The notes beneath the pieces were generated by a model. It ran no database searches, had not been told where the DNA came from, and worked only from the letters and a program-made list of their open reading frames with translations. A program made the position numbers and the translations under genes. Shown here piece by piece: positions 9,430-50,507 of a stretch of DNA of 64,000 nt (within the stretch, counting starts at the first letter, position 1; each line of letters starts with the position of its first letter). The DNA comes from Bacteroides sp. GTDB taxonomy: Bacteria > Bacteroidota > Bacteroidia > Bacteroidales > UBA7960. The stretch lies in contig JAZBOS010000021.1 in assembly GCA_036351255.1 (NCBI GenBank), positions 20,053 through 84,052 of the forward strand. Direction: 5' to 3'.

Positions 9430-11856
9430 CTAAGAAACGGATTTTTTCGGAAATATTTTTAATTGCAGCGAAAAAGCTAAGGCTGCAAAAAAGTAAGCCA
9501 GGCCGGCAGCCATGAGGACTATCTGGAATCCTTTTTCAACAGCAATGAGGGTTGCCAGCGAAGTGCTGATAACGGAGAGACAAGCATTGATGCCCCAGGC
9601 CCAGGCAATCTGGCTTTCTCCTTTCTTGCTCAGAAGCCGGATGCCCAATGGGAAAAGCATTCCCATGAAAAAGGAAGGGGTTCCAATGGCCATCACGCTG
9701 ATTAATGCTTTCCAGGGCATTGCCAGAGACAGGGTTGAACGTATTAATGGCGTAAGCCCAAAGCCAACCATAAGCAACAAGGCTGATATCAATAAGGCCA
9801 GCCTTCGGATGAGGCTAATGCTGGCTTGCCTTTTCTGTGACAGCAGGCTTCCCAGACCGCTGAAAAGCATCATGGTGCTGATTACGGCGGTTACCGCAAA
9901 TACTGGCTCTCCAAGATAAAGTACAAATCGCTGAATCAGGATAATCTCAGCGAACATATACCCGATCCCCAGGGCACCAAAATATACCAGGGTCGCGGTT
10001 TTTCCTGAGGTAGCTTTTTTCAGGGCAAGCAAAGGCAGAACGATCAGAATCACCGAAAGGATAATGCTCTGCAGCAATGTTACCAGGAGGGTCAGGTATC
10101 CCAGTTCAAGAAAGGGTATCTGCACCCATCCAAACACCCCGGCAATGTGTTTCAGGCTTTTCAACCTCAGAAACTGGGAAAAATAAGGTTGGTCGTCAGT
10201 TGAAGGCTCAATGGCAAATCCGTAATTTGGCAGGGCTTTAAAATCACCCTCAACGATTTTGTCCAGATTTTCAAAATACTGAATGTCCTCCAAAAGGTTG
10301 TATTGCTGCCGTTCTTCTTCTCTGAGGTCTGGCAGCAAAAGTGGGTCAAAAAACATTTCCTGGCAGAATGCCCTGATGTTCTCACGCTCACCTGCATTGA
10401 TGATACCCTGTTTCAATACGAAAGTGGTGGAGCCCCACGACCGTATGGCTGCCAAATGATCCCGGGGATTCTCTACACCTGTTGCTATGGCTGCCTGGGC
10501 GAGGGTGGCAGGGATTTTCAGGCTGGTACGGGGCGGATAATCCTGCCAGGTAGACACGGCCAGCATCCCGTCCGGTTTTAAGTGCTCCAGCATTTCAATA
10601 AAGGCCTCCTGAGTATAGCTGTATTCCTCGCGCAAGGCATTTACCCCTGAGGTTCCGCCAAATCCCTCAAAAAGAGGAAGAACGATTAAGTCATAATCTG
10701 GTGTGCTTTCCCTGGTTAGGAAAGCCCTTGACTGCATGCGATAGATCTCGACTTCGGGTAAATGAAACAAATTACCGGATTCTTCCCTGAGTTCACCCTT
10801 CATCAATTTTGTCACTGCATGATTCTCAATGACCGCATCCACCTGTTGGGCTCCATTTGAAAGGGCATGGGAAATAACGACTCCTGTGCCGGCATTGATA
10901 CAGAGCACCCTCTCCTTCTTTCCGTTAAGATAGGGAAGCATTTGGGTGGTATAGTCAAGAATATGATCAGTTCGGGACACTTCATAAGGTATTACCGGTC
11001 CATAATAGTTCCCGTTCACAAATACGGAATGCCCCCCGGGGATTTCTTTTCCATATTTAAGACTAACCGCAGGAGCATATCGCTGGGCAGATGAATGAAC
11101 AACTTCCACTAGCCCGTAAATGGATGGCTTGCTCAGACTTACCTCTGCTTCCGGCAAATGGAGTGTTTTGGCAAGGGCTTTATATTCTGATATTTGAGGT
11201 TCAGCAGGCTGTGTCCAAACTGTCAGCAAAAGCCCAATGAGAGCTATGGGTATTGAAAACAACCTCCCCATCCGCCCCGCAAGAATTGCACCTGAAACCA
11301 ATGACAGCAAACCGATCAGTAATGGACCCTTGGTGGGGAAGAAATAGTTCATGATCACCAGGGCCAGAATGCCGCCCAGGGAGGAACCAAGCAGGTTTGA
11401 AAAATAAAAGTTTCCGATCCGGCTGCTTTTCTGAATAAAAATGATGCCAATTGCCAGCGACCCGGAAAAGAAGGGGAGGAAAAACCAGAGATAAGTAAGT
11501 AGCAGGTTCAGCCAGCCTCCTCCGCCCGAAAACAAAAGGAATACATCAAAGCGAAGGATCTCTCCACGACTTAATGGAAACACCAGCATCATCAGGATGC
11601 CGCTTAGGGCCATCGATGAAGGTACAATCCATTTTGCATGACGAAGGATTCTTTTGCGGGTCAGTGACAATAAGGTCCCGCTGGCCCCAAAACCCAGCAT
11701 GGCAATGGAAATGACCATATAGGCAAAATGATGCCACTGAACGATAGAGATCAATTGCATAAGCGACAACTGAAAAGCAATGATGGCTGCTGAGTGAAGC
11801 CCAAGGCTTATCAACAACCATTTTTCATTGCTTGGGAATGGGTTGCCGGCTTGCAT
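9430..11856 (-). CDS. Fused MFS-like membrane domain / spermidine-synthase-like (class I MTase fold) protein with additional C-terminal TM bundle
   Basis: 808 aa. About 7 N-terminal TM helices, then a central soluble domain with a nucleotide-binding-like VLCINAGTGVVISHAL block, then a second block of about 6-7 TM helices. The ATG directly abuts the pcm stop codon (TAAATG). Confidence 0.5.
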   Translation of the reverse strand: MQAGNPFPSNEKWLLISLGLHSAAIIAFQLSLMQLISIVQWHHFAYMVISIAMLGFGASGTLLSLTRKRILRHAKWIVPSSMALSGILMMLVFPLSRGEILRFDVFLLFSGGGGWLNLLLTYLWFFLPFFSGSLAIGIIFIQKSSRIGNFYFSNLLGSSLGGILALVIMNYFFPTKGPLLIGLLSLVSGAILAGRMGRLFSIPIALIGLLLTVWTQPAEPQISEYKALAKTLHLPEAEVSLSKPSIYGLVEVVHSSAQRYAPAVSLKYGKEIPGGHSVFVNGNYYGPVIPYEVSRTDHILDYTTQMLPYLNGKKERVLCINAGTGVVISHALSNGAQQVDAVIENHAVTKLMKGELREESGNLFHLPEVEIYRMQSRAFLTRESTPDYDLIVLPLFEGFGGTSGVNALREEYSYTQEAFIEMLEHLKPDGMLAVSTWQDYPPRTSLKIPATLAQAAIATGVENPRDHLAAIRSWGSTTFVLKQGIINAGERENIRAFCQEMFFDPLLLPDLREEERQQYNLLEDIQYFENLDKIVEGDFKALPNYGFAIEPSTDDQPYFSQFLRLKSLKHIAGVFGWVQIPFLELGYLTLLVTLLQSIILSVILIVLPLLALKKATSGKTATLVYFGALGIGYMFAEIILIQRFVLYLGEPVFAVTAVISTMMLFSGLGSLLSQKRQASISLIRRLALLISALLLMVGFGLTPLIRSTLSLAMPWKALISVMAIGTPSFFMGMLFPLGIRLLSKKGESQIAWAWGINACLSVISTSLATLIAVEKGFQIVLMAAGLAYFFAALAFSLQLKIFPKKSVS

Positions 11857-12802: not shown

Positions 12803-15190
12803 ATGATGATCTCCCGTCGTTTTTTGATTTTATTCAGCCTGTTGTTCATTTTTTTTCAGGGCTTTTCCCAGGTAAGCACCCGCACAAGAAGTGTGCTTGA
12901 AAATCTCCAGAGATATACCCTGGAATATCCACAGCAAAAGGTCTTCCTGCATCTTGATCGCAAGGAATATGTTGCGGGTGAGAACATCTGGTTCAAAGCC
13001 TATTTGGTCCAGGCTGGTTCTCACATCCCTGATTCTTCGAGCACCAGCCTGAATGTTGAACTGTTTAATGTGAACGGTCAGGCTGTTGCCTTGCACCTGG
13101 TGAGGATGCAGGACGGTTTGGGGTATGGGCAAATCTCCCTCCCCGATTCCTTGCCTGAAGGCAATTATAAACTCAGATCCTACACCAATTGGATGCAGAA
13201 CTTCCCGGAGTTATTATTTTTTGAGCAAGATATTTTTGTTCATAATCCAATGGAGCAAAATTTCATCCGGCGTGCAGACATCCGGCGAAACCGCAATTTC
13301 AATGAAGAACTGGAAGAAAAAAAGGAGGAAGTGCAACTTGGTTTGTTTCCTGAAGGGGGACAATTTGTTGCCGGCGTTGAAAACCGGGTAGCTTTCTTTG
13401 CTGCCGATGGGACAGGCTCTCCCTTGCAAGCCACGGGGAAAGTGATGGATGCGGATGGACAAATTTTGGGTTCCTTCAAAACCAATGAATTAGGAATGGG
13501 TTTGTTTGCGCTTAGCCCCCTAAACGGACAAACTTACAAGGTAGAGTTGGAGGTACCTGGCAAAGGCGTAAAAATGTTTTCTTTTCCCGAAGTGGTTCAG
13601 CAGGCTTATGCCCTAAGGGTTGATGCCGATGCTGAAGAGGTCTCGGTTCAAGTCCGGGCAGGATTTGACCCAGCGACCTTCAATTTGCCTGCCGACGTTT
13701 TTATCATTGCACAATCTGGCGGGAAAGCCCATTTTATTGAAGAAGGCAAATTACTTGACGGACAATTCAGCACAACCTTCTCAACCAGTCGCTTGCCCAC
13801 AGGAGTAACCCAGATTACAGCTTTTGATGCAGTGGCTACCCCTGTGGCCGAACGCTTAATTTTTGTGGATCACAACGACCATTTGCAACCTGATCTTGAC
13901 CTGAACAGGGTTCGGGTGGGTAACGAAAATGGCCTCCAGGTTGATTTTAGACTGGATTTTGTTGAAGGTAGCGGGGAATGGGCTCACCTGTCCCTGGCAG
14001 TGGAAGGCTCAGAAAATCCCTTTTATGTGCCTGCCCCCAATATCCTTACCGAGTTATTGCTTAGAAATGACCTATCCATCAACCTTCCCAACCTTCAGGC
14101 ATTATTCCCGGGTCAGGGCAATTCAGCTGAAAAGCTTGACCTGATTATGATGACACACGGATGGCGCCGTTTTCATTGGAAGGATATTCTGAGTGGTGAA
14201 TTTGCCCAACCGCAATACACCAAACCACAGGGACAGGTTCTGTCTGGCCAGTTGACATCTATGAATACCGACCAGATTCCCTCCGCGGTACTCCTTGAGA
14301 TTGCCATTGTGCAGGAAGGCCGTGATGTTTATTCAACGCAAACCGACGAAAAAGGGTTCTTTAAGTTGGAAGGCCTGGATTACAATGGTTATTATACAGC
14401 TGAATTCAGGCTGCCCAATGAAAGTCGCCCCCGGGGCTTCAGGCTAAGGGTGGATGGAACTGAAACGGCTACCCGTACTTTCTCTATGAATTCCTTTACC
14501 CGACCCGTATCGGTACTGCAGCGAGGCGAAAACTGGGAAAGGGTTTCCAATCCCAATGTGTTTGCCGTGGCTTCCAAAGCCAGGGAAATTGCCCAGGAAA
14601 CTCAAAGCATTTATGGAACCCCCGACCAGACTATATACATGGATGACGTTTCTGTGAACTACTCTAATGTGCTTGAAGTCTTCAGGGGAAAGGCAACGGG
14701 AGTCACTTTTGTTGGCAACCAGATCAGAATTAGGGGTGAAGGAAGCATTAATTCAAGCAATGAACCTCTTTTCATGATGGACGGTGTGGTGGTCACCCCT
14801 GAGGTATTGTTGAATTTGAGGCCCACTGAACTAGACCGTATTGAGATCCTCAAAGGCCCCAGTACAGCCATCTTTGGAGCCCGTGGTGCTAATGGCGTCA
14901 TCATTGCCTATTCCAGAAGAGGCGCAACCCAAGGCCCCCAGTTTCAGTACAACCTGCTTGGGTTTGCCACGCCCAGAGAGTTCTTTAATTCACGCATCCA
15001 TCTTGATTACAAAAAAGAAAGGGGTATTACGCACACACTTTTTTGGGAGCCTGGAATCATGCCTGATGAACGAGGTCGTTTCGGAATGGGCTTTCCAATC
15101 AGGGAACAATGGAAACATGCCAGGGTTATCGTGCAGGGCATTCATAGTAGTGGGAAACTGATCTGGTCTGAGGTGAATCTCAATTATTAA
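12803..15190 (+). CDS. Secreted MG2 (alpha-2-macroglobulin-like)/Ig-like repeat protein with C-terminal TonB-dependent-receptor plug domain, no beta-barrel
   Basis: 795 aa with a signal peptide (MMISRRFLILFSLLFIFFQGFSQ). An MG2-like block (KVFLHLDRKEYVAGENIWFKAYLV...GNYKLRSYTNWM) is followed by a plug-like block (GVTFVGNQIRIRGEGSINSSNEPLFMMDGVVV...IEILKGPSTAIFGARGANGVII). Only about 100 aa follow the plug. Confidence 0.6.
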   Translation: MMISRRFLILFSLLFIFFQGFSQVSTRTRSVLENLQRYTLEYPQQKVFLHLDRKEYVAGENIWFKAYLVQAGSHIPDSSSTSLNVELFNVNGQAVALHLVRMQDGLGYGQISLPDSLPEGNYKLRSYTNWMQNFPELLFFEQDIFVHNPMEQNFIRRADIRRNRNFNEELEEKKEEVQLGLFPEGGQFVAGVENRVAFFAADGTGSPLQATGKVMDADGQILGSFKTNELGMGLFALSPLNGQTYKVELEVPGKGVKMFSFPEVVQQAYALRVDADAEEVSVQVRAGFDPATFNLPADVFIIAQSGGKAHFIEEGKLLDGQFSTTFSTSRLPTGVTQITAFDAVATPVAERLIFVDHNDHLQPDLDLNRVRVGNENGLQVDFRLDFVEGSGEWAHLSLAVEGSENPFYVPAPNILTELLLRNDLSINLPNLQALFPGQGNSAEKLDLIMMTHGWRRFHWKDILSGEFAQPQYTKPQGQVLSGQLTSMNTDQIPSAVLLEIAIVQEGRDVYSTQTDEKGFFKLEGLDYNGYYTAEFRLPNESRPRGFRLRVDGTETATRTFSMNSFTRPVSVLQRGENWERVSNPNVFAVASKAREIAQETQSIYGTPDQTIYMDDVSVNYSNVLEVFRGKATGVTFVGNQIRIRGEGSINSSNEPLFMMDGVVVTPEVLLNLRPTELDRIEILKGPSTAIFGARGANGVIIAYSRRGATQGPQFQYNLLGFATPREFFNSRIHLDYKKERGITHTLFWEPGIMPDERGRFGMGFPIREQWKHARVIVQGIHSSGKLIWSEVNLNY

Positions 15191-15422
15191 TTCCACCCCA
15201 GAAAACCCGAAGGTTCTTATCACTGGTTTCTTCATTTGATTAGTTGTTATTGTTGGCTTTTGACTATAATTATTTAAATAGTCAGGCTGGATGCCCTTTT
15301 TTTCAGGGGCCGAGGTTAACGAATCTTTTAAAAATGGTTTAAATTTCGTAACTTAAACGCATATTTCGTGATAGGGGGGCGAGAAGGGAAAATTCATTAA
15401 CATAAATGCAGGAGGAATTACC

Positions 15423-17837
15423 ATGCGATCGTTAATATACTTAATCAACCTTGCCGTTTTAACAGGATTGTTTTTGCCGCAGCAGGCCATGGCTGAAGGG
15501 CCCTTAATCCCTTCTGGTTATGAAGCCTACACCCCATATCAGGTTATCAATGGTTTTTATGAGTCATTTCCTCAGCAGAAGGCTTACATCGACACCGATA
15601 AAACGAACTACCTGGCCGGGGAGGTCGTTTGGTTGAAGGCCTATGTTGTTTCGGCCAAAACCCATGTGCCCGATACTTCAACCACCAATCTTTTCGTTGA
15701 GTTGATCAGTGCCCGCAATGAGGTCGTTGATTTTATGATACTCCGCTTGAATAATGGCTTTTCAAGTGGTTATATCCAATTGCCCGATTCCCTGAAGGGT
15801 GGGAGTTACCAGTTGAAAGCATACACCAATTGGATGAATAATTTTGATAAGGATTTTATTTTTCTCAGGGAGATTTATGTTCATAATCCTGATGAACCCA
15901 ATTATATCACCAGGGCTGAGATCCGTCAGAACACCCGTTTCAACGCTGACCTTGAAGAAAAAAAGGAACACATGCAGTTTGCCTTTTTCCCCGAAGGAGG
16001 CAACCTGGTGGCCGGACTTGAAAACCGCCTGGCTTTTAAAGCCGCAGATGCCCTGGGGGCAGGGCAGGAGGCCAAAGGTACCCTGCTTGACGATCAGGGC
16101 AGGAAGGTGCTTGAGTTTGTCACAGACCACGATGGCATGGGGGCTTTCACTTTTACCCCCAATGCAGCTCTATCATATACGGCCCAGGTTGAGTTTGGTA
16201 ATGGGCAAACGCTTTTCTCACCCTTACCAGCAGCATTAACCCAGGGCTACTTGTTGCGTGTCGATTCTGACCCTGGGAATATTCAGATTCAGGTGAATGC
16301 AAATTTTGATCCAAATAGTCTGAATATGTCCTCCGAGCTTCTGCTACTTGGACATACCCGTGGGCAAGTTTGCTATATGGGAAAGGCGGATCCCAAAAAC
16401 GGAAGCTTCCAGACGGTAGTTCCCGCAGAACGTTTTCCTGAAGGCATTGCTCACTTTACCCTCTTTGACCCCAACGATACCCCCGTGGCCGAAAGGCTTG
16501 TATTCGTCAGGAGATCCCTGGATTCGGAAGATACTCCTGAAGTCGATTACGAGCTCAGTTCGGGTGACAGTCTTGTCGTTGTAGATTTGCTGTTTGACAC
16601 TGCAAGCGACCTTTCCCCATCCGAGGCCAGCTATTCGTTATCGGTAGTTGAAAAGTTTGGATCCCTTCCTGAAAATGGGCAGAATATTGCTACCTATCTG
16701 TTGCTTTCAAGTGACTTTGGTTCCACCCTTTCCGATCCCTGGTATTATTTTGCAGAAGATACCCCCGAAAGGAGGCAGGATCTTGATTTGCTGATGCTGA
16801 CACACGGCTGGAGAAGGTTTGTTTGGAAAGACCTCCTGGATGGTAAAAAACCCGAGATACTTTTTAAAGAATTGCATGGCCTTACCCTGGCTGGACAGGT
16901 TAAACCAGTTTCCTCCGCCAGAGAAACAGGTGAACTCAACGTGGAAGTTTCAGTGGGATACACCGACGACCGTAAAACCCTCAGAACGAAAACGGACAAC
17001 CAGGGATTTTTTGCCTTTACCGGTCTGAATTATGAGGGAGACTTTTCGGCGCTTCTCTCTGTGGAACGAGACCGTAGGGGCCGTATTTACAAAGTAAATC
17101 TTTTCGGGAGTACCCGTGAAACCACATCCTATGTGAAAGGGCCCGGCACCCGGCCTTACGAAACCCTTGAAAGAGGCCCTGATTGGGAACGCCGTGATCG
17201 CCCTGGATTCTTCAGCCGTCTTTTCAACCGCCCAAGCACCGGTGAAGAAATGAGCAGTCCCAGTATGTTTGGGGCGCCCGATCAGGTGATTTACATGGAA
17301 GACCTCAACGTAAATTATACCAATGTTTTCGATATCATTCGTGACCGGGTGACAGGCCTGAGGGTTATCAATGGGGAAATCACCCTGAGGGGCCCTTCCA
17401 GCATCAGGCTGAGTAATGAACCTATATTCTTTGTTGATGAGGTCCAGGTCAACGCCAATAGCTTCCTTTCCATTTCTGTTTCTGAAATTGAAAGAATCGA
17501 AGTGCTTCGTGGACCCAGCACGGCTATACTCGGCAGCCGGGGAGCCAATGGCGCCCTTTTAATCTACACCCGCAGGGCTGAACATCAGCACCAATTCTCC
17601 TATGAATACCAACTTAGGGGATATCACGTTACCCGCGATTTCTTTATTTCCAGGATTTCTACCAGCAAATACTTCGATCAGGAAGTCCCCCGTACGATTT
17701 TATGGGTGCCCAACCTGGTCCCTGATTCTTACGGACGTGTCAGGGTAAGGATACCTTATTCTGAGGATCCTGATAAATTGCATTTTAGGCTTGAGGGGGT
17801 GGATCGTCTTGGGCAAATCAATTTTCTGCAATTCTGA
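15423..17837 (+). CDS. Paralog of 12803-15190: MG2-like repeat protein with C-terminal plug domain, no barrel
   Basis: 804 aa with a signal peptide and the same block order (QKAYIDTDKTNYLAGEVVWLKAYVV..., HGWRRFVWKDLL, GLRVINGEITLRGPSSIRLSNEPIFFVDEVQV...IEVLRGPSTAILGSRGANGALLI). Collinear with the upstream paralog. By eye, roughly half of the positions in the aligned blocks are identical. Confidence 0.6.
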   Translation: MRSLIYLINLAVLTGLFLPQQAMAEGPLIPSGYEAYTPYQVINGFYESFPQQKAYIDTDKTNYLAGEVVWLKAYVVSAKTHVPDTSTTNLFVELISARNEVVDFMILRLNNGFSSGYIQLPDSLKGGSYQLKAYTNWMNNFDKDFIFLREIYVHNPDEPNYITRAEIRQNTRFNADLEEKKEHMQFAFFPEGGNLVAGLENRLAFKAADALGAGQEAKGTLLDDQGRKVLEFVTDHDGMGAFTFTPNAALSYTAQVEFGNGQTLFSPLPAALTQGYLLRVDSDPGNIQIQVNANFDPNSLNMSSELLLLGHTRGQVCYMGKADPKNGSFQTVVPAERFPEGIAHFTLFDPNDTPVAERLVFVRRSLDSEDTPEVDYELSSGDSLVVVDLLFDTASDLSPSEASYSLSVVEKFGSLPENGQNIATYLLLSSDFGSTLSDPWYYFAEDTPERRQDLDLLMLTHGWRRFVWKDLLDGKKPEILFKELHGLTLAGQVKPVSSARETGELNVEVSVGYTDDRKTLRTKTDNQGFFAFTGLNYEGDFSALLSVERDRRGRIYKVNLFGSTRETTSYVKGPGTRPYETLERGPDWERRDRPGFFSRLFNRPSTGEEMSSPSMFGAPDQVIYMEDLNVNYTNVFDIIRDRVTGLRVINGEITLRGPSSIRLSNEPIFFVDEVQVNANSFLSISVSEIERIEVLRGPSTAILGSRGANGALLIYTRRAEHQHQFSYEYQLRGYHVTRDFFISRISTSKYFDQEVPRTILWVPNLVPDSYGRVRVRIPYSEDPDKLHFRLEGVDRLGQINFLQF

Positions 17838-19018: not shown

Positions 19019-19966
19019 ATGCTTTTTCACTCTCCTGAAAGAATTTCCCGCAGTATGCTGAGGCTCGGCCTTGCATTGTCAGTCTTTTGCCTTGGTGCTG
19101 CTCCGGCCTTTTCACAGAAATCTCCGGCACCAACTGAAAATCCTTTTCTCGCGCTTGAAGATTCACTGCATCGTATGGCCATGCAAATTATCGAACCTAC
19201 GGATGACAAGGCTAGGTTAGAACAAAATGCTTTGTTTCAGAAAGCTTTGGAACAAGCCCTGTTGATGGATAGTATCCTCGCCAATCCTTTCGATTCGGTC
19301 CGTACCGTGTCTTTCCTTACCGATCCCAGGGGCGACTTTAGAATCATCACCTGGTACGTGCCTCTGGTCGACGGCACTTATCAGTATTTCGGGTTTATTC
19401 AAACCTCCGCTACCAGGAAACAATCCGGAAAATTGTTTCCGCTTCACGATAAAACCAATGCACTGACGCAGGTATCCTCGCGCCAACTGGGGCAGGACGA
19501 ATGGTATGGTGCCTGGTATTATGAGCTGATCCACCAGCGCCACCGACGCAAGGACTATTACACCCTCCTGGGCTGGAAGGGCGATAATCCTGCTTCCCGA
19601 AAAAGGGTGATCGAACCTTTCCATATAACAGAGGAAGGTCCTGTCTTTGGTGCCCAGGTGTTCGATGGCAGCGAGCGCAAACCCTTCAGGATCATTTTCG
19701 AGTATTCCGCCCGGGTTAGCATGACCCTGAAATATGAGCCCGAGTTTTCCCAGGGGAAAAGGCGAAAAGTGCCTATGATCGTCTTTGACCGGCTGGCGCC
19801 AACCCACGAGACCTTCCAGGGCAACTTCCAGTATTACGTCCCAGAGGTCAATGTGCTCGATGGCTTTCGCTTTCAAAAGGGCCGCTGGAGCCTGGTCCCT
19901 GATGTCGACGCTCGCGTCAGTATCGATCCCGCACTCGTGCCCCTCAACCCTCCACGAAACCCCTAA
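19019..19966 (+). CDS. Hypothetical secreted protein
   Basis: 315-aa ORF with a signal-peptide-like region (MLRLGLALSVFCLGAAPAFSQ, alternative start 19055). I recognise no motifs. The long antisense ORF 19217-20029 is rejected. Confidence 0.55.
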   Translation: MLFHSPERISRSMLRLGLALSVFCLGAAPAFSQKSPAPTENPFLALEDSLHRMAMQIIEPTDDKARLEQNALFQKALEQALLMDSILANPFDSVRTVSFLTDPRGDFRIITWYVPLVDGTYQYFGFIQTSATRKQSGKLFPLHDKTNALTQVSSRQLGQDEWYGAWYYELIHQRHRRKDYYTLLGWKGDNPASRKRVIEPFHITEEGPVFGAQVFDGSERKPFRIIFEYSARVSMTLKYEPEFSQGKRRKVPMIVFDRLAPTHETFQGNFQYYVPEVNVLDGFRFQKGRWSLVPDVDARVSIDPALVPLNPPRNP

Positions 19967-26130: not shown

Positions 26131-28587
26131 ATGGATAATTTTTTTGAACGAGAAAGCATGTTTTTTTCAGAGATTATGGATGCCGACAGTGAATTCATTC
26201 CCCTGCTCAGTGCAGAGGAGGAGGAACAAATGGCTGCAGAGCAGATCCCTGAAATTTTACCCATACTTCCCTTAAAAAATACAGTTTTATTTCCCGGGGT
26301 GGTAATCCCTATTACGGTGAGCCGCGACAAGTCCATTCGTTTGGTGCGCGAGGTGTATAAAAAGAACCGCGTCATCGGAGTCGTTTCACAGAAGGATTCT
26401 GAAGTGGAGGAACCCGAGTTTGAAGACCTTAACCGCATTGGCACCTATGCCAATATTATCAAAACCCTGCAGATGCCCGACGGGAATACCACGGTGATTA
26501 TACAGGGCAAGAAACGCCTGGAAATCAAGGAACTGGTAACCAGTGAACCTTATTTTAAGGCGCGGGTAGCGGGCTTCGACAGCCAGCTTCGGGTGAAAAG
26601 CAACCAGCAGTTCAAGGCCCTGATTGCCACCATAAAGGACCTTGCCATTCAAATTGTGAAGCTTTCGCCCAATGTGCCCAGTGAGGCAGCCTTTGCCATA
26701 CGCAACATAGAGAGCCCGGCTTTCCTGGTAAACTTCATCTCCTCCAACCTTAACATAGAAAATGCTGATAAGCAAAAGTTGTTGGAGACCCTTGACCTGA
26801 ACGAAAGGGCCAATAAGGTGCTGGAGTACCTGACGAAGGAATTGCAGATGGTGGAACTGAAAAACCAGATTCAGTCGAAGGTAAAGGTAGATATTGATAA
26901 GCAGCAACGCGATTACTTGCTGAACCAGCAATTGAAAACCATCCAGGAAGAGCTAGGAGGGAATCCTTATGATCAGCAGATCGCCGAATTGAAGGAGCGG
27001 GGCAGGAACAAGAAATGGAGCAAGCAGGTGAAGGATGTTTTCGATAAAGAAATCCTTAAATTGCAGCGGATCAATCCGGCTGCCATGGAGTTTTCCATTC
27101 ATTTGAACTACCTTGAGACCTTGGTGGAATTGCCGTGGAATGAATTCTCGAAAGACAAATTTGACCTGAAAAAGGCTCAGCGTGTTCTTGACCGTGATCA
27201 TTATGGTCTGGATAAGATCAAGGAGCGCATTATCGAATACCTGGCGGTGCTAAAACTGAAAGGCAACATGAAGTCGCCGATCCTTTGCTTTGTAGGCCCT
27301 CCCGGGGTAGGGAAGACCTCGCTTGGAAAATCTATTGCCGAGGCCGTGGGGCGCCAGTATATCCGGATGTCGCTCGGGGGCTTGCGCGATGAAGCCGAGA
27401 TCAGGGGGCACCGCAAGACTTACGTGGGGGCCATGCCGGGCAGGATCATACAAAACCTGAAAAAAGCCAAAACCGGTAACCCCGTGTTTGTGCTGGACGA
27501 GATCGACAAGGTGGGCTACCAGACTTTCTCAGGTGACCCCTCCTCAGCCATGCTGGAAGTACTTGACCCGGAACAGAATGTGGCCTTTTACGATAATTAC
27601 CTGGAGGTTGATTACGACCTGTCGAACGTGATGTTTATTGCTACTGCCAACAGTCTGTCGAACATCCAGCCTGCCCTGCGCGACCGAATGGAGATTATCC
27701 CGCTTAGTGGGTATATTGTGGAGGAGAAGGTTGAGATTGCCCGCAGGCATCTTTTACCCAAGCAGCTTACGGAACACGGGATGAGAAAAGATCAGCTGAA
27801 ATTCAGTAAGAAGGTGCTCGAAAAAATCATTGAAGATTACACCCGCGAATCGGGGGTGAGGACACTGGAGAAACGCATTGCCAAGGTAATTCGTGCCAAA
27901 GCCCGTGAGATCGTGCTGGGCGAAACGGTGGATCCCAACCTGAAGGTAGAGGATGTGGAAAAGATCCTTGGCGCGCCGACCTATACCCGCGATCAATCGC
28001 AACTGCATGATTTGGCCGGCGTGATGACCGGATTGGCCTGGACCTGGGCCGGTGGAGAAACCCTTTACATTGAAGTAAGCATTAGCAAGGGCAAAGGGCA
28101 ACTGACGCTGACAGGGAATCTGGGCGATGTGATGAAGGAATCGGCTACCCTGGCCTACGAATACCTGAAATCGAAGGCGCCCACACTGGGAATTGACTCG
28201 AGGGTTTTCGAAAAATACAATGTGCACATGCACATCCCGGAAGGGGCAACCCCAAAGGACGGGCCTTCAGCCGGAATTACCATGTTTGCTGCCCTCACAT
28301 CAGCTTTCACGCAAAGAAAAGTAAAACCTGGTGTTGCCATGACAGGTGAGATCACCCTCCGGGGAAAAGTGTTGCCTGTGGGAGGGATCAAGGAAAAAAT
28401 TCTTGCTGCAAAACGGGCTGGTATCCAGACGGTTATTCTTTCTGAAGAGAACCGAAAGGATGTGGCTGAGATCAATCCCTTATATCTCAAAGGCCTTGAT
28501 TTTGTATATATCCGCGAGATGATCGAGGTGGTTGACCTGGCCATTGGAAAGGGAAAGGTAAAGAAGCCCTTGGTATTTGAGGTTTAA
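26131..28587 (+). CDS. lon: ATP-dependent Lon protease (endopeptidase La)
   Basis: 818 aa with Walker [10 protein letters not shown], the catalytic-serine block [11 protein letters not shown], and a Lon N-terminal domain. Confidence 0.95.
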
Positions 28588-28747: not shown

Positions 28748-31147
28748 ATGTCAGAAGAAAACAAAAATCTGAACCCTTCGGAAGAGCAGCCGGCAGAAAA
28801 GCCTGTTGAGCAGACCGAAAACCAGTCCGAAGCAGTAGAAACGCCCGCAGAAGAGGTTGCTGAAACCCCTGCTGAAGAGAATGTTGAAACCCCTGCTGAA
28901 GAAGTAGTGGAGCCCCCTGCTGAGGAAGTTAAGGAAGAGCCTAAGGCTGAAGAAGTTGCTGAATCTCCTGCTGAAGAAACCGCTGAAACCCCTGCTGAAG
29001 AGGTAGTGGAGACTTCCCCTGAGGAAGTAAAGGAAGCGCCTAAAGCTGAAGAAAAACCTGAAACCCCCAAGAAAAAAACCGACGCATTCACCCAACAGGT
29101 TCCCGGCGAATTTGACTGGGATTCCGTAGGCAAGAAGCAGGAAGCTTATTCCCCCGCTGAACGTCAGCGCATGGAAAGCCTGTATGATGAGACACTGAAG
29201 TCGATTGGCGAAGGTGAAGTGATCGATGGTACGGTCGTTTCGATGAACAACCGTGAGGTGGTGGTCAACATTGGCTTCAAATCCGATGGGGTTATTCCTG
29301 CCGCTGAAGTGCGTTACAACCCAGACCTGAAGATTGGCGATGCCATCGAGGTGTATGTAGAAAGCCAGGAAGATACCAGTGGACAGCTGGTGCTTTCGCA
29401 CAAGAAAGCCCGGACACTGCGCTCGTGGGAACGCATCAATGCAGCCATGGACAACGACGAGATCATTAATGGTTTTGTGAAGTGCCGTACCAAAGGCGGT
29501 TTGATTGTCGACGTCTTCGGTATCGAGGCTTTCCTGCCCGGTTCACAGATTGACGTTAAGCCTATCCGCGACTATGATATCTATGTTGGCAAGACCATGG
29601 AATCCAAAGTGGTCAAGATTAATCACGAATACAAAAACGTGGTCGTATCGCACAAAGCCCTGATTGAAGCCGAACTGGAAATTCAGAAGGCAGAGATTAT
29701 TGCCAAACTTGAAAAAGGACAGATTCTGGAAGGAACTGTTAAAAATATTACCTCCTACGGTGTGTTTGTTGACCTTGGCGGAGTGGATGGTCTTATCCAC
29801 ATTACCGACCTATCCTGGGGACGCATTAACCATCCTGAAGAGATCGTCAATCTTGACGAAAAGATCAATGTGGTTATTCTCGACTTCGATGAGAACAAGA
29901 AGCGTATTGCCCTTGGTCTGAAGCAGCTTACCTCCCATCCCTGGGATTCGCTCGATCCGAATATGAAGGTAGGTGATAAGGTCAAAGGTAAGGTTGTGGT
30001 TATTGCCGACTATGGCGCATTCATTGAGATTGCTCCTGGTGTAGAAGGTCTTATACACGTTTCCGAGATGTCATGGTCTCAGCACCTGCGCACCGCTCAG
30101 GACTTCCTGAAGGTTGGTGATGAGGTGGATGCCGTAATTCTGACGCTCGACCGCGAAGAGCGCAAAATGTCACTGGGTATCAAACAACTGATTCCCGATC
30201 CATGGGAAAACATCGTTGAGAAGTATCCCGTTAACTCCAAGCATACCGCTACTGTTCGCAACTTTACCAACTTTGGTATCTTTGTTGAGTTGGAAGAAGG
30301 TGTCGACGGCCTGATTCATATTAGTGACCTTTCCTGGAGCAAGAAGATCAAGCACCCTGCCGAATTCACCAAGATCGGTGAAAGCATTGAAGTGGTCGTG
30401 CTGGATGTTGACAAGGAAAACCGCCGCCTGAGCCTTGGCCACAAGCAGCTTGAAGAAAATCCATGGGATGTATTCGAGAGCGTATTTACCATTGACTCCG
30501 TACATCAGGGGACCATTGTTGGGACTTCCGATAAGGGCGTGATCGTTTCGCTGCCTTACGGTGTGGAAGGCTTTGCGCCTACCCGCCACATTGTGAAGGA
30601 AGATGGTAGTCCTGCTAAGATGGACGAAACCCTTGACTTCAAAGTGATTGAATTCAATAAGGAAAGCAAGAAGATCGTTGTATCGCACACCAAGGTTTTC
30701 CAGGATGTGAAATCATCTGAAAGGGCTGCCGAGACCAGCGAACGGAAGGCTAAAGAGAAGTCTACCAAGACGGCCGTGAAGAAAATCAAGGACAACATTG
30801 AGAAAACCACTCTTGGTGACCTGAGCGTTCTTGCCAACCTGAAGTCAGAGATTGAGAAGACCGAAAAATCCGCTCTGAAGGAAAAGCTGGCTGCCATGGA
30901 CGAGAAAGAAAAGGCTAAGGAAGAAGCGAAAGCTGAGGAACCTAAAAAAGAGCCCAAAGCCGAGAAGCCCAAGGAAGAGCCTAAGGATGAAGAATCCAAG
31001 GAGGAACCCAAAGCTGAGAAACCCAAGGCCAAAACTACCCGCAAGAAAAAGGAAGAGGCTCCTGAAGCTGAAACCCCCGCTGCGGAAGAAAAGCCTGCTG
31101 ACGAAGAAAAGCCTGCTGACGAAGAAAGCAAGGAAACCAAGGAATAA
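28748..31147 (+). CDS. rpsA: 30S ribosomal protein S1 with long acidic N-terminal and K/E-rich C-terminal extensions
   Basis: 799 aa. Six S1-motif repeats are recognisable (GEVIDGTVV..., FVKCRTKGGLIV, GTVKNITSYGVFVDLG, GKVVVIADYGAFIEI, ATVRNFTNFGIFVEL, GTIVGTSDKGVIVSL). They are flanked by low-complexity tails. Confidence 0.9.
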   Translation: MSEENKNLNPSEEQPAEKPVEQTENQSEAVETPAEEVAETPAEENVETPAEEVVEPPAEEVKEEPKAEEVAESPAEETAETPAEEVVETSPEEVKEAPKAEEKPETPKKKTDAFTQQVPGEFDWDSVGKKQEAYSPAERQRMESLYDETLKSIGEGEVIDGTVVSMNNREVVVNIGFKSDGVIPAAEVRYNPDLKIGDAIEVYVESQEDTSGQLVLSHKKARTLRSWERINAAMDNDEIINGFVKCRTKGGLIVDVFGIEAFLPGSQIDVKPIRDYDIYVGKTMESKVVKINHEYKNVVVSHKALIEAELEIQKAEIIAKLEKGQILEGTVKNITSYGVFVDLGGVDGLIHITDLSWGRINHPEEIVNLDEKINVVILDFDENKKRIALGLKQLTSHPWDSLDPNMKVGDKVKGKVVVIADYGAFIEIAPGVEGLIHVSEMSWSQHLRTAQDFLKVGDEVDAVILTLDREERKMSLGIKQLIPDPWENIVEKYPVNSKHTATVRNFTNFGIFVELEEGVDGLIHISDLSWSKKIKHPAEFTKIGESIEVVVLDVDKENRRLSLGHKQLEENPWDVFESVFTIDSVHQGTIVGTSDKGVIVSLPYGVEGFAPTRHIVKEDGSPAKMDETLDFKVIEFNKESKKIVVSHTKVFQDVKSSERAAETSERKAKEKSTKTAVKKIKDNIEKTTLGDLSVLANLKSEIEKTEKSALKEKLAAMDEKEKAKEEAKAEEPKKEPKAEKPKEEPKDEESKEEPKAEKPKAKTTRKKKEEAPEAETPAAEEKPADEEKPADEESKETKE
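28838..29053 (+). repeat. Nine tandem 24-nt (8-aa) coding repeats E-[TPSEA]-[PS]-[APK]-E-E-x-x inside rpsA
   Basis: Translated units: ETPAEEVA ETPAEENV ETPAEEVV EPPAEEVK EEPKAEEVA ESPAEETA ETPAEEVV ETSPEEVK EAPKAEE. The string gaaacccctgctgaaga recurs three times at the DNA level. Confidence 0.85.
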
Positions 31148-32493: not shown

Positions 32494-35439
32494 TTAAGTT
32501 TCGCGCAAGGAAAGCAAAAGAACATCCACCGGATGGAGGGATTTTCTGCCTGTGCCATCCAGGATTTGGTGGCGGCAGCTGGTGCCTGAAGCCGAAATGA
32601 TGGTATCAGCAGGGGCTTTTCTTATGGCAGGCAGCAGGTTCATTTCAGCAATCTGCATGCTCAGTTCAAAATGTTCCTTTTCATAACCAAAGGAACCTGC
32701 CATGCCACAACATCCGCATTCAATAGGTGTAACTTTGTTGCCAGCCGGGATGCGCAGCATGGCGAGGGCAAAGTCGTTTTTCGACAGGGCCTTTTGATGG
32801 CAGTGTCCGTGGAAGAGGATATCCCGCTTTTCGGCCGAAAAACGGCTGCCATCAATACGGCTGGCTTCGTATTCGCGGAAAATGAACTCCTCGATGGTGA
32901 AGGTGTTTTTTGCCAGTCTCAGGGCTGCTTCCCGCTTTTCTTCAAGGCAAAGGTCAGGATATTCGTCACGAAAACTCAGGATGGCAGAGGGTTCAATGCC
33001 AATAAGGGGTCTCGATTCGGTCACTATTCCTGATAAAAGAGAGATGTTCTCATTGGCAAGGCTGGCTGCCTTCCTGAGTAATCCCTTTGAAAGGGCTGCC
33101 CGCCCGCTTTCACAGTGCTCAGGGATCTCCACCCTGTAGCCAAGTCCGTGCAACAATTGGATCGCGTGAATCCCCGTTTCAGTATCGTTAAAATTGGTAA
33201 ATTCATCACAGAATAACCATATTTTTTTGCCCCCCTTGATTTGCCTGTTGAGGGATTCAAGGTTTTTCCCCGCCCATTTTTTCAGCGTTGTTTTATGAAG
33301 CAAGGGCATGCTTCGTTTTTGTGCAAAGCCCGCTGCACTTTTTATCAAGGCTGACGTCAGGCGGTTTCTAACCAGGGCATTGTAAAAGCCTGGTACCAGA
33401 CTGACAAATTGGTTTAGGGTTGCAAAGGCTGCTACCAGCCTCGATCGGAACGGGGTTCCATTGGTTAGGTAGTATTGCTGCAAGACTTCTGCCTTATATC
33501 GACCCATATCGACATTCGATGGGCATTCGGCTTTGCAGCCCTTACAGGACAGGCAAAGATCAAGAACGTTGATCAGTTCCTTATGATCGAAGGGGTTCTT
33601 TTTCTGAGAATTGGTGACAATCTCGCGCAGCACATTTGCTCTTCCGCGGGTAGTATCGGTCTCATTGAGCGTGGCGTGGTACGAGGGGCACATGACCCCA
33701 CCCATGGATGCAGGTTTTCGGCAGTCGCCAGAGCCGTTACATTGTTCAACTGCCCTTAAGAAACTCTCTGAAGGCCCATAGTGAAAAAATGTTTTCAGTT
33801 TGCGTTCCGGATAGCCTGGCCGGTAACGCAAGAAAGTTTTAATAGAAGGGGTGTTGGTAATCTTCCCCGGGTTGAACAAGCATTGAGGATCCCAGGTTTT
33901 TTTTACCTCATGCAACAAGTTATACACCTTATCGCCTAGCATCAGGGGAATAAACTCTCCGCGTAAGCGACCGTCGCCATGTTCCCCGCTGAGTGAGCCA
34001 CGATATTTTTTTACCAGCAGGGCGGTTTCGTGGGCTACTTTGTGGAAACGCTCTACATCGGTAGGGTTTTTCAGGTTGAGGACAGGACGAAGGTGCAATT
34101 CGCCCGTGCCGATATGCGCATAATAAACACTGCTCAGGTTTAGCTTTTTCAGAATCTGGTTCAGCTTACCGATAAACTCAGCCAAATCCTTAACACTTAC
34201 AGCTGCATCTTCAATTACAGCTACTGGTTTTGCATCTCCAGGAACATTTGAGAGAACCCCAAGCCCGGCTTTCCGCAAAGCCCAGACACGGTTGATGTCT
34301 TTTCCTGTTACCAGTGGGAAATGATACCCCAGGCCTTTCTCACGTAAGGCACTTTCCATTGCTTCGGCTGCTGCCAGGATAGTCGCCCGCTCCTCGGCCG
34401 CAAATTCCACAACAAGAATGGCACCAGGATCACCCTGCACAAAGAACCGATTGCGGGCCTGGGCAATATTGGCCTTGGTACATTCAAGTACCACATTGTC
34501 AATGAGCTCAACGGCTACCGGCCCGTATTGAAGTGCAACCAGATTGGCGTGTAACGCTTCTTCCACACTATTCAGATGAACGCATACCAGTGCGTTTTCA
34601 GCGGGTGGTAAAGGAACAAGGTTCAGCTTTATTTCCGTAAAAAGGGCCAGCGATCCTTCTGATCCCGACAGCAGCTTACAAAAGTTGAATGGTTCAGGGC
34701 TCTCCCCAAATACTGCATTGTCGAGAAGCAGGTCGAGGGCATATCCTGTATTTCGCCTTTTAATCTGGGGATTAGGATATTGCCGTTTTATTTCCTCCTG
34801 ATTTTCAGGATGGGAGAGCAGGGCCTGAATCTGGTTGTATATTTTGTTTTCCAGGCTGTTTCCGATGCACTTTTTTCGGAAGGCTTCATTGTCCAGCGCC
34901 TCGAAAATGGCTTCACTGCCATCGGCGAGTAAGGCTTTTATGGAAAGGGTGTGATCGCGAGTGCTGCCATAAACCAGTGAATGCGAACCACACGAATTGT
35001 TGGCCACCATGCCACCCATCATGCAACGGTTCGAGGTAGAGGTTTCCGGCCCAAAAAACAGCCCGTGGGGTTCCAGTATCCGGTTTAGATCATCCAGGAT
35101 GACTCCGGGCTCAACCCTTACCCAACGCTCTTCGACATTAAGTTCCAGAATGCTGGTCATGTATCTGGAGAAATCCACCACCAGGCCGTGGCCCACCACT
35201 TGTCCGGCAAGGGAGGTCCCAGCGGTTCGGGGGATGATGGGCAGGGTGTGCTCACGGCAGAATGCCAGGATTTTCTTGAGATCATCGGTGTTTTTAGGCC
35301 GGCAAACGCCTGATGGCAACTCCCTGTAGACCGAGGCATCTGTAGCATATAGCATTCGCCAGGTAGGATCGTAATGCAGATCGCCTTCCAGCTGGTTTGC
35401 CAGAATATCAAAAGGAAATGGGTCTTTGGAGGATGCCAT
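32494..35439 (-). CDS. FAD-binding and Fe-S-binding oxidoreductase, YdiJ-like (GlcD-type FAD oxidase fused to GlcF-like 4Fe-4S/CCG domains); candidate D-2-hydroxyglutarate dehydrogenase
   Basis: 981 aa. N-terminal FAD_binding_4-like region (IIPRTAGTSLAGQVVG), a ferredoxin-type cluster motif CLSCKGCKAECPSNVDM, and C-terminal Cys-rich (CCG-like) repeats (CGCCGMAGSFGY). Confidence 0.7.
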   Translation of the reverse strand: MASSKDPFPFDILANQLEGDLHYDPTWRMLYATDASVYRELPSGVCRPKNTDDLKKILAFCREHTLPIIPRTAGTSLAGQVVGHGLVVDFSRYMTSILELNVEERWVRVEPGVILDDLNRILEPHGLFFGPETSTSNRCMMGGMVANNSCGSHSLVYGSTRDHTLSIKALLADGSEAIFEALDNEAFRKKCIGNSLENKIYNQIQALLSHPENQEEIKRQYPNPQIKRRNTGYALDLLLDNAVFGESPEPFNFCKLLSGSEGSLALFTEIKLNLVPLPPAENALVCVHLNSVEEALHANLVALQYGPVAVELIDNVVLECTKANIAQARNRFFVQGDPGAILVVEFAAEERATILAAAEAMESALREKGLGYHFPLVTGKDINRVWALRKAGLGVLSNVPGDAKPVAVIEDAAVSVKDLAEFIGKLNQILKKLNLSSVYYAHIGTGELHLRPVLNLKNPTDVERFHKVAHETALLVKKYRGSLSGEHGDGRLRGEFIPLMLGDKVYNLLHEVKKTWDPQCLFNPGKITNTPSIKTFLRYRPGYPERKLKTFFHYGPSESFLRAVEQCNGSGDCRKPASMGGVMCPSYHATLNETDTTRGRANVLREIVTNSQKKNPFDHKELINVLDLCLSCKGCKAECPSNVDMGRYKAEVLQQYYLTNGTPFRSRLVAAFATLNQFVSLVPGFYNALVRNRLTSALIKSAAGFAQKRSMPLLHKTTLKKWAGKNLESLNRQIKGGKKIWLFCDEFTNFNDTETGIHAIQLLHGLGYRVEIPEHCESGRAALSKGLLRKAASLANENISLLSGIVTESRPLIGIEPSAILSFRDEYPDLCLEEKREAALRLAKNTFTIEEFIFREYEASRIDGSRFSAEKRDILFHGHCHQKALSKNDFALAMLRIPAGNKVTPIECGCCGMAGSFGYEKEHFELSMQIAEMNLLPAIRKAPADTIISASGTSCRHQILDGTGRKSLHPVDVLLLSLRET

Positions 35440-44196: not shown

Positions 44197-44877
44197 TTAT
44201 CGTATATATAATTTATTTTTTCCGGCAGAAAATTTATAAAACAGGCTATAATGCAGCATCACAGAAGTATTTCCATCATTTTTCCCAAATCCGCTGATAT
44301 AATACGGGTCCATGTCCGAACCCGGCTTGCGTGCCAGCATCAGCCTGATGCGTAAATCCCATCCCAGGTATAAGTTCCAGAATAATTTGGTTTTCAATCC
44401 CCCGCCAATTTCTGCCCAGTGGGCCGAATACCTGGCTGCCTCGAAGGCCCCTTCCACAGAGCCCCAGTAAGGATCGTTGATGATAATCCTGGGGGCTTCG
44501 TGGCTTAGCGTACCAAAACCATAACGGAAGGAGAGGAAGATCTCTTCTCCTTTCATGGATGGATTTTTCTGAAGCAGGTTGTAATTCACTCCCGCCCGGA
44601 AAAATAGTCCCCGGGCATCGTAGTTATGGGTTTCACGTGCTATAGCTACGTCCAAGTTGCCAGCTTCAATGGCTGCAAACCAGTTTGGCTGCCATTCAAA
44701 GCTCCCCGAGATACCATGCACCATCACCTCAGGCTCAAAGTAATTTCTTGCCAATCCCGAAAGGTCATACCCTAAGCTAACCGTTGGCCTGAAAACCAGC
44801 GTGTCCATGTCTTGCGCCCTGGCTCCAAGACTAAAGGTCAGCGTCAGGATAAAGCAGTATTTTGATATGTTCTTCAA
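44197..44877 (-). CDS. Putative small outer-membrane beta-barrel protein (uncharacterised; possibly DUF6048-like)
   Basis: The ORF-track frame is open to TTG 44988. I prefer TTG 44877, which gives MKNISKYCFILTLTFSLGARAQ|D, a clean signal peptide. The mature part shows an alternating hydrophobic beta-strand pattern. The start overlaps the upstream lipoprotein gene end by 47 nt. Start choice and family name are uncertain. Confidence 0.45.
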   Translation of the reverse strand: MKNISKYCFILTLTFSLGARAQDMDTLVFRPTVSLGYDLSGLARNYFEPEVMVHGISGSFEWQPNWFAAIEAGNLDVAIARETHNYDARGLFFRAGVNYNLLQKNPSMKGEEIFLSFRYGFGTLSHEAPRIIINDPYWGSVEGAFEAARYSAHWAEIGGGLKTKLFWNLYLGWDLRIRLMLARKPGSDMDPYYISGFGKNDGNTSVMLHYSLFYKFSAGKNKLYIR

Positions 44878-45340
44878 GGCTGTGGTTAAGCAGGTTTTGG
44901 GATAGTTGAACGGTGCTGATCCGGTAATTGGTATGTGATACTTCAAGAATATCATAGAACATTGTAAATCCGCATTCGGCAGAGACAAAATTCAGGGAAT
45001 GGGTATATTCCACCCAAAGGGTGTCCGTGATGTTCTCAGGGAAAATGAAAACAAAGCCAGTGTTAGTCGATGCAGGGTTCAGTGGGACTTCAATGCTACG
45101 GACACTTTTGGTGTTATCGTAAATCAGGCTGTCGGCCCGGCCTGCACCATAAACGGTGAGGCTGTCGACGGTGTAGGCCGTTGGCGCCCCATCTATAACA
45201 GTGGGCAGGTAAAAGCCCAGCCGAAGCGGGTTGGAGGTGGCTTCCTCGCATAACTCGTCGCTTTGGCAAGAGCCCAGGAACAACATGCTGAGCAAACATG
45301 CCACCACCATCATTGCACCCGATCCTGAAATGACTTTCAT
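44831..45340 (-). CDS. Small lipoprotein (uncharacterised; possibly DUF6452-like)
   Basis: 169 aa from ATG 45340: MKVISGSGAMMVVACLLSMLFLGSCQSDE, with the lipobox L-G-S-C. It lies 70 nt downstream of the TonB-dependent receptor stop on the same strand. Confidence 0.6.
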   Translation of the reverse strand: MKVISGSGAMMVVACLLSMLFLGSCQSDELCEEATSNPLRLGFYLPTVIDGAPTAYTVDSLTVYGAGRADSLIYDNTKSVRSIEVPLNPASTNTGFVFIFPENITDTLWVEYTHSLNFVSAECGFTMFYDILEVSHTNYRISTVQLSQNLLNHSLEEHIKILLYPDADL

Positions 45341-45410
45341 ATCCGGCAAAAATAAGAAAAAATACCAAGGAGGGTGGTGGATAGTTTCTCTTACCCTTAG
45401 AAATGTAAAA

Positions 45411-50120: not shown

Positions 50121-50138
50121 TCGTTTCGTATTAATTGG

Positions 50139-50477: not shown

Positions 50478-50507
50478 GCTTTTTAAAAAGAAAAGTTGAA
50501 TGACGGC

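Follow-up and report, generated by a model that had tools for sequence, protein, structure and literature searches.

The 64,000-nucleotide stretch analysed here (hereafter the window; contig JAZBOS010000021.1 of assembly GCA_036351255.1, Bacteroides sp., positions 20,053 to 84,052) contains two neighbouring genes, W1 and W2, whose products carry the plug domain of TonB-dependent transporters within a chain of macroglobulin-type (MG) β-sandwiches and without a β-barrel (Table 1). The two open reading frames (ORFs) lie in different frames of the forward strand, and their lengths and spacing are those given in an initial annotation that had been made from the sequence alone. According to BLASTP, the two proteins are collinear, with 37% identity across 756 residues (E 1e-176), and they share the block order that the annotation had described. 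Both N-termini, as read from the sequence, consist of a basic n-region followed by a hydrophobic h-region, with no lipobox cysteine; W1 contains no cysteine at all and W2 a single one. A database protein 100% identical to W1 (P0001, a JGI gene call of 765 residues) has its start called 30 codons short and omits the signal peptide (window 12803–12892). A related metagenomic locus (L001) encodes tandem orthologs of 794 and 804 residues, in the same order and amid the same housekeeping surroundings, and the 794-residue length of the W1 orthologs supports the longer start.

Table 1. Features of the W1–W2 locus in window coordinates. Slashes mark predicted signal-peptide cleavage sites; pLDDT, predicted local distance difference test score.
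Feature	Position	Strand	Basis or remark
W1 (gene 1), barrel-less plug and MG-array protein	12803–15190	+	795-aa ORF
Spacer between W1 and W2	15191–15422		232 nt
W2 (gene 2), paralog with the same block order as W1	15423–17837	+	804-aa ORF
W1 putative Sec signal peptide (MMISRRFLILFSLLFIFFQGFS/Q) without lipobox Cys	12803–12868	+	Read from sequence; putative cleavage site
W1 MG2-like β-sandwich, aa 45–147	12935–13243	+	8 strands in AlphaFold2; PF01835 28.5 bits; 81.7% ortholog identity
W1 two more MG/Ig-like β-sandwiches, aa 177–260 (invariant FFPEGG) and aa 269–355	13331–13867	+	AlphaFold2, pLDDT >90
W1 three-strand piece, aa 366–403; probable opening part of a split MG domain	13898–14011	+	AlphaFold2 strand counts
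W1 helical insert with family signature LDLxMxTHGWRRFxW	14042–14194	+	Helices 414–464; HGWRRF at 14156–14173
W1 CarboxypepD_reg-like (SusC NTE-like) β-sandwich, aa 478–551	14234–14455	+	Six AlphaFold2 strands; PF13620 23.5 bits
W1 low-confidence, poorly conserved linker, aa 552–608, ending in conserved YGTPD	14456–14626	+	TonB-box position of relatives, deleted here
W1 Plug domain, aa 609–704, SusC/RagA signature GARGANGVI	14627–14914	+	PF07715; TIGR04057 signature 32.3 bits
W1 C-terminal β-sandwich, aa 713–795, MG-type motif TLFWEP...G	14939–15187	+	Five AlphaFold2 strands, pLDDT 87–96
W2 signal peptide, aa 1–24 (…QQAMA/E)		+	
W2 MG2-like domain	15579–15830	+	
W2 HGWRRF	16803–16820	+	
W2 Plug domain	17283–17555	+	

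The Plug domain (PF07715) was identified in both proteins well above its Pfam gathering score of 23.9 bits, with 42.7 bits in W1 (residues 619–699, E 8.9e-11) and 40.4 bits in W2 (residues 621–711, E 4.5e-10), and the match is nearly complete, covering model positions 21–107 of 107. The plug-type segment IRIRG...NEPLFMMDG...IEILKGPSTAIFGARGANGVI and the blocks HGWRRFHWKD and HGWRRFVWKD, both noticed in the initial annotation, are present in the pair; around the latter, T451, G453, W454, R455, R456 and W459 are conserved in at least 90% of 89 aligned homologs. No barrel match (PF00593, TonB_dep_Rec_b-barrel) was obtained for W1 or W2 in the Pfam scan. Barrel detection works in this window, since the same kind of search returned both Plug and barrel (110 bits) for the transporter encoded at 45411–47345. 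The SusC/RagA model TIGR04056 gave 71.8 bits for W1 and 60.7 bits for W2 against a cut-off of 368, with only positions ~99–224 of its 981 matched. Approximately 96 residues come after the plug, which in the structural model form a β-sandwich and not barrel strands, and no barrel-like sequence lies 3′ of either ORF in any frame, the ORF after W1 being its paralog W2. The proposal of a plug without a barrel, followed by only about 100 residues, was thus borne out by profile and model alike. Profile searches also revealed no type IX secretion system (T9SS) sorting domain (PF18962 or TIGR04183) in W1 or W2, which sets them apart from T9SS cargo; the same library detects this domain in the window proteins at 50508–54251 and 48687–50141. 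W1 and W2 are complete proteins that lack a barrel, a lipid anchor and a T9SS sorting domain.

The MG2 and CarboxypepD_reg-like regions named in the initial annotation are less well supported than it suggested. Pfam returned a single sub-cut-off MG2 match (PF01835) per protein, at 28.5 bits in W1 and 24.9 bits in W2 against 32.8, and a single sub-cut-off CarboxypepD_reg match (PF13620), at 23.5 and 16.6 bits against 32.3, with a six-strand sandwich at the expected position in the model. Relatives of W1 and W2 score above the MG2 cut-off (48–58 bits), and the family profile matches MG2 of human A2M as well as that of complement C3 (E 4e-5). The MG2 repeats are therefore supported by the predicted fold and by the above-cut-off relatives, not by the profile scores of W1 and W2 themselves. 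No matches to A2M_BRD, CUB or RBD were found in either protein by Pfam, and the chain ends after a probable split domain (see below). No Pfam or NCBIfam model spans a whole protein of this type.

We built an AlphaFold2 model of W1 on the 89-sequence alignment (mean pLDDT 88.2, predicted TM-score 0.80). It starts with the signal-peptide helix, an eight-strand sandwich and a long helix, and continues through two seven-strand sandwiches, in which E184, G186 and R351 are invariant among the 89 homologs, to the three-strand piece. The helical insert containing THGWRRF comes next, followed by the six-strand CarboxypepD_reg-like sandwich, the linker, an α/β domain and a last sandwich of five strands (residues 713–794), in which W748, G779 and G784 are invariant. 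Confidence falls in the linker: residues 581–600 have a pLDDT of ~54 in the full model, and in a fragment model residues 553–599 stay below 50. The model comprises only β-sandwiches and one α/β plug domain, with no barrel, including none formed by the C-terminal ~100 residues, and no helical toroid (TED) domain.

Using Foldseek, we compared the whole W1 model with the PDB and obtained matches to the E. coli macroglobulin ECAM, Salmonella A2M, C3/C4/C5, TEP1 and CD109 (E 1e-15 to 1e-11, probability 1.00). The TM-scores of these matches were low, at 0.1–0.3, indicating that the domains of W1 are of macroglobulin type but differently arranged. A fragment model of residues 470–795, which was weaker (pLDDT 72; ~67–90 per 10-residue block in the plug part), was used solely to search for plug folds and to compare the confidence of the C-terminal sandwich. 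Its plug matches those of SusC, RagA, FepA, PirA, BtuB and Cir over ~115 columns with root-mean-square deviations of 3.2–3.5 Å, the best match being SusC (8aa4_A; E 1e-4, 117 columns, 3.2 Å). At the sequence level, the family profile aligns with residues 101–239 of SusC (5t3r_D; E 7e-18). No family member has a solved structure, and sequence and profile searches of the PDB returned only transporter plugs and the MG2 domains of C3 and A2M.

The confidence of the C-terminal sandwich drops when it is modelled without residues 366–403. Because the three strands of this piece and the five of the last sandwich together make up one MG domain, we infer that this domain is split, and the helical insert and the NTE-linker-plug cassette would then be carried inside it. 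Such an arrangement has a counterpart in C3, where the anaphylatoxin domain occupies the site of the macroglobulin bait region and MG6, as in A2M, is split by an insertion. The whole chain is an MG series of the α2-macroglobulin/complement type that encloses a cassette, made up of an NTE-like transthyretin sandwich, the linker and the plug, of the kind found at the periplasm-facing N-terminus of SusC and is closed by an MG-like sandwich.

In their build W1 and W2 thus resemble a macroglobulin's MG half combined with the N-terminus of SusC, and they belong to neither group. With SusC/RagA proteins (TIGR04056; e.g. Bt1763 and RagA) they share the cassette order of a sandwich resembling the NTE, a linker, which bears a TonB box in many members, and a plug with the signature GxRGANGVI. 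Relative to the plug, the sandwich at residues 478–551 of W1 stands where the NTE does in SusC (PMC7782687). Unlike SusC/RagA, W1 and W2 lack the 22-strand barrel, the TonB box and a SusD-type partner gene, and their cassette is internal, preceded by ~450 residues of MG domains and the helical insert and followed by a sandwich. With the bacterial macroglobulins (E. coli ECAM/YfhM and Salmonella A2M) and the wider A2M/C3/TEP superfamily they have in common the series of MG sandwiches, the signature DKxxYxxGExIWFK in MG2, a probable split MG domain with an insertion resembling that of MG6, and a presumably periplasmic location. They differ in being half the size, in having no thioester, TED or lipobox cysteine and no match to CUB or the receptor-binding domain, and in that their insertion would be a transporter-derived NTE-plug cassette in place of a bait region.

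The pair is one instance of a large family. A word-indexed search yielded at least 883 homologs, typically of ~800 residues (median 808 among those sampled), and when all 1.84 billion cluster representatives were searched with a profile, 13,413 clusters at 50% identity were recovered (E≤1e-30). Scanning one genome per species, the pattern THGWRRF retrieved at least 592 loci, the best 80 of which are essentially all from Bacteroidota: Bacteroidales metagenome-assembled genomes (MAGs), Cytophagales, Flavobacteriales, Sphingobacteriales, Chitinophagales and Saprospiraceae. For two of these 80 (L033 and L047), on contigs of just 6–8 kb, the bin labels read Cyanobium and Nostoc, and we suspect Bacteroidota contamination of the cyanobacterial assemblies. 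The closest species-level relatives of W1 and W2, Bacteroidales MAGs from soda-lake sediment, are only ~37% identical, so the source lineage is absent from the reference species. Database names for homologs are only of the "plug domain-containing" or "hypothetical" type, derived from single domains, and some JGI records call them "TonB-dependent SusC/RagA subfamily outer membrane receptor". In the literature searched we found no functional study of the family; "plug domain-containing protein" occurred there only as rows of omics tables. The initial annotation was right that these are genuine, intact, barrel-less plug proteins with MG-type domains and no assigned role. Its suggestion of an undescribed envelope system was overstated for this locus, which is a housekeeping one, and the family, with its many clusters, already carries generic names.

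An N-terminal hydrophobic segment is present in 217 of 241 sampled family members, and a lipobox-like motif in only 15. The most conserved family motifs, FFPEGG, THGWRRF and YTNWM, all lie outside the plug, and many members have no Pfam-detectable Plug. Among the orthologs of W1, on the other hand, conservation is highest in the plug (82.5% identity), closely followed by the MG2-like domain (81.7%), which argues that the plug is functional in the W1/W2 clade and not decaying; it is under strong purifying selection there. The linker (residues 552–608) is the least conserved segment, with 13% identity to distant members. The W1 and W2 plugs are closest to those of genuine SusC proteins of ~1030 residues (33–38% identity over ~100 residues). 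Descent from the ~923-residue transporters that adjoin some relatives was also considered as the source of the plug and rejected, because the ~1030-residue SusC plugs are more similar.

A TonB box had been suggested as a point to check. The motif is absent from W1 and W2 and present in many of their relatives: 92 of the 241 sampled members (~38%) contain an L-x-E-[IV]-x-[IV]-type motif 17–25 residues before YGxPD, against a mean of 5.5 and a maximum of 15 in shuffled controls. In a profile alignment, the family consensus "lleevtv" falls on MVDEVVV of Bt1763, whose TonB box VDEVVV is required for transport, as established by mutation (PMC7782687). Judged by this motif, the box-bearing relatives probably bind TonB directly. 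The W1/W2 clade conserves RGxxWERV...P(E/N)T/V instead. Several members of ~1200 residues (P0030, P0045, P0051 and P0233) start with a true SusC-type NTE (PF13715, 58–71 bits), directly followed by LDEVIV, LAGVTV, LEEIVV or LGEVRV; ~300 residues of unassigned sequence separate this TonB-box-like motif from the family core. The N-terminus of these barrel-less proteins is therefore like that of a transporter.

Some relatives are encoded beside transporters. In nine of 84 loci (L003, L007, L010, L038, L053, L064, L068, L071 and L082) a family member stands next to a transporter of ~920–960 residues, in several orders, with a DUF4249 gene between them in seven; the order transporter, DUF4249, family member occurs on one strand or divergently. 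In L068 the lid position is taken by an unclustered ORF of 398 residues, and in L071 no DUF4249 ORF lies between the transporter and the family gene. Three of the nine loci (L007, L010 and L053) are from the Bacteroidales MAGs closest to the W1/W2 pair. All five transporters that we scanned have an NTE and a Plug; STN was found in two and a PF00593 barrel match in three, and the other two, of the same length and cluster, gave a weak OMP_b-brl_4 match or none. The TonB-box motif occurs in one of 12 family members from transporter operons versus 63 of 94 elsewhere (Fisher p 1.3e-4). Structure prediction and co-fitness have led to the proposal that DUF4249 proteins form the lids of this transporter subfamily (bioRxiv 10.1101/2023.03.17.533168), and the literature we found on this DUF4249-lidded transporter system does not mention a link to a third gene. 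Box-less relatives, the nearest ones of W1 and W2 among them, often follow transporter–lid pairs of the BT2172/BT2173 type, which W1 and W2 do not.

A conserved secreted protein of ~250 residues is encoded ahead of the transporter in four of the transporter-linked loci. The resulting recurrent cluster of this protein (no Pfam match), the transporter, one to three DUF4249 genes and the family member is seen at L003:3233–10412 and also in L010, L038, L053, L064, L071 and L082. Within our own window, the reverse strand at 44197–47345 encodes the 644-residue transporter mentioned above, then a 200-residue ORF (44831–45433), then a DUF6048 protein, and the transporter and the DUF6048 protein may form another transporter-accessory pair.

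Family members also recur in multiple copies. Tandem arrays of two to six copies occur in 12 of the 84 loci, and the largest array seen (L083:2114–19432, Pedobacter anseongensis) holds six members on one strand within ~17 kb. In four proteins of ~1600–1800 residues (P0123, P0127, P0128 and P0253) two copies are fused in frame through a short linker, the second copy beginning after its signal-peptide position. Tandem arrays and double fusions together suggest that two copies work together, and on this comparative basis W1 and W2 would act as a heterodimer. The initial annotation overlooked these double fusions, as well as the macroglobulin/complement fold of the scaffold, the TonB box of the relatives and the link to transporter and DUF4249 genes.

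The W1/W2 locus itself is ordinary, with a housekeeping neighbourhood that includes pcm, a LuxC-like reductase, serC and serA. Among the relatives compared, L001, a close one, alone keeps this synteny; the genes around more distant homologs are unrelated. A sigma-70-type scan and a search for the Bacteroidota −7 motif TAnnTTTG gave no usable promoter upstream of W1 or W2, and neither a convincing terminator nor a Bacteroidota-type promoter motif was found in the 232-nt spacer. Directly downstream of pcm, the reverse strand at 9430–11856 encodes an apparently polytopic membrane protein of 808 residues with many hydrophobic segments and no Pfam match; the pair of pcm and this gene is syntenic in L001, where the counterpart has 815 residues. 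On the other side, a 315-residue protein with a signal-peptide-like N-terminus and no Pfam match (19019–19966, forward strand) also keeps its position in L001 (339 residues). Two ORFs that resemble a second tandem pair by size (26131–28587 and 28748–31147) proved to encode Lon protease and ribosomal protein S1, and an ORF of 981 residues considered as a SusC candidate (32494–35439) encodes an FAD oxidase/Fe-S protein. Farther along, the reverse strand at 48687–54251 encodes two adjacent T9SS-sorted proteins, an Endonuclease I with a Por_Secre_tail domain and a protein of 1247 residues with LTD, chitobiase-C, Big_5, CBM_4_9 and DUF5689 domains, after which a tyrosine recombinase gene is found (54305–55351).

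Taken together, we tentatively favour, at a little short of an even chance, a reading in which W1 and W2 are soluble periplasmic accessories of TonB-dependent uptake that work as a heterodimer. Its architectural part is near-certain. Its functional part is weak, because W1 and W2 have neither a TonB box nor a transporter neighbour. According to this proposal, both proteins would stay soluble in the periplasm, where the macroglobulin-type MG scaffold would hold the SusC-derived NTE-linker-plug cassette, and the plug, outside any barrel, would dock to the machinery of TonB-dependent uptake or serve it as a mechanical module. The box-less W1 and W2 would act with a complete transporter and its DUF4249 lid, in handling cargo or in contacting the periplasmic face. 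They would not be direct clients of TonB, and the paralogs would pair as a heterodimer. We favour a transporter accessory over a direct TonB client because the box has been lost and because the closest relatives are often encoded after an STN-NTE-Plug transporter and DUF4249.

Several observations weigh against this proposal. In W1 and W2 the NTE-like and MG2 matches lie under the Pfam cut-offs, the split MG domain rests on AlphaFold2 strand counts, and the prediction of the plug fold may lean on sequence homology to solved plugs. Isolated plug domains have been described as poorly folded outside a barrel, which makes a stable barrel-free plug an assumption. The linker of W1 and W2 is shorter than that of their relatives, with gaps where these read LLEEVTV, so that the TonB box is missing. 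Neither the window nor the syntenic L001 has a transporter or DUF4249 gene adjoining the pair, and the transporter link holds in only ~10% of the sampled loci, most members standing alone.

The strongest competing explanation is that the plug fold has been reused with no link to TonB transport, in an envelope or periplasmic scaffold or a binder of, for example, glycans, peptidoglycan or proteins, the TonB-box-like motif of the relatives being an evolutionary relic or the site of another partner. We regard this as rather unlikely, though it is in keeping with the unrelated housekeeping neighbours of most loci, the window included, with the loss of a Pfam-detectable Plug in many members and with the position of the top conserved motifs outside the plug. 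A relic is hard to reconcile with a motif that is fixed in distance in 38% of members, far above chance, and that is repeated after the NTE of the long forms. Reuse of the fold alone also sits poorly with the plug being the best-conserved domain of the W1/W2 clade and with an operon link to transporter and DUF4249 genes that is not random.

The same motif lends itself to a bolder view, to which we assign a low probability: that the family as a whole consists of soluble periplasmic TonB clients, with an NTE, a TonB box and a plug but no barrel. Pulling by TonB, driven by the proton-motive force, would in that case act on a plug housed in an MG cage instead of a membrane pore, unfolding or displacing it, for example so as to release, capture or hand over cargo; box-less proteins of the W1/W2 type would be partners or regulators.

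Improbable to a similar degree is a thioester-less trap of the macroglobulin type, a periplasmic defence in which the linker would be a protease bait and its cleavage would free or rearrange the plug and MG domains, capturing or signalling the intruder. Bacterial macroglobulins (ECAM and Salmonella A2M) are indeed the best matches of the whole model, the cassette seems to be placed in a split MG domain at the macroglobulin bait site, and the linker is partly of low confidence and poorly conserved. However, the likeness lies in the domains and not in their arrangement, there is neither a TED domain nor a CUB match, a CxEQ-type thioester motif (C[GLA]EQ) occurs in none of the 241 family members, and W1 has no cysteine to form one. 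Monomeric bacterial macroglobulins depend on the thioester for capture. Moreover, PADLOC returned no match to defence systems, and no pbpC-type partner gene was seen near them.

The initial annotation had also envisaged an action in trans with a separate barrel; such an outer-membrane barrel would have no plug of its own and would be gated by the one supplied. The nearly complete Pfam match, the plug fold and the transporter genes adjoining some relatives are in keeping with this view, but several points speak against it and we consider it very improbable: the β-sandwiches covalently attached on both sides of the plug would be expected to clash with insertion into a 22-strand barrel, the five adjacent transporters scanned all carry a Plug of their own (three of them with PF00593), and the sole transporter in the window also has its own plug, no plug-less barrel being found there. 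Finally, the suspicion that W1 and W2 derive, as fragments or pseudogenes, from a full-length receptor of the SusC type broken by a frameshift, to which their plugs' identity to those of genuine SusC proteins might point, can be set aside almost completely, given two intact ORFs with their own signal peptides, ~600 residues of non-receptor MG domains ahead of the plug, orthologs of the same length in other genomes and thousands of homologs of ~800 residues.

To our knowledge, plugs have otherwise been described only as the corks of barrels. All known TonB-dependent transporters contain both a plug and a barrel (bioRxiv 10.1101/2023.03.17.533168). W1 and W2 are an intact and conserved counterexample to the rule of plug with barrel, in a family of more than 13,000 clusters from the Bacteroidota, the phylum most dependent on TonB-dependent uptake. 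If family members were themselves TonB clients, they would break the rule that cellular plugs and TonB boxes occur only in barrel transporters. Should its members dock to TonB or to transporters, the family would fill a gap on the periplasmic side of nutrient import in Bacteroidota of gut, soil and marine habitats, and could help to explain what the NTE domain of SusC does. Otherwise, it would show that the plug fold can be stable and of use with no barrel around it. In both cases, many annotations that count genes of this family as TonB-dependent receptors are wrong.

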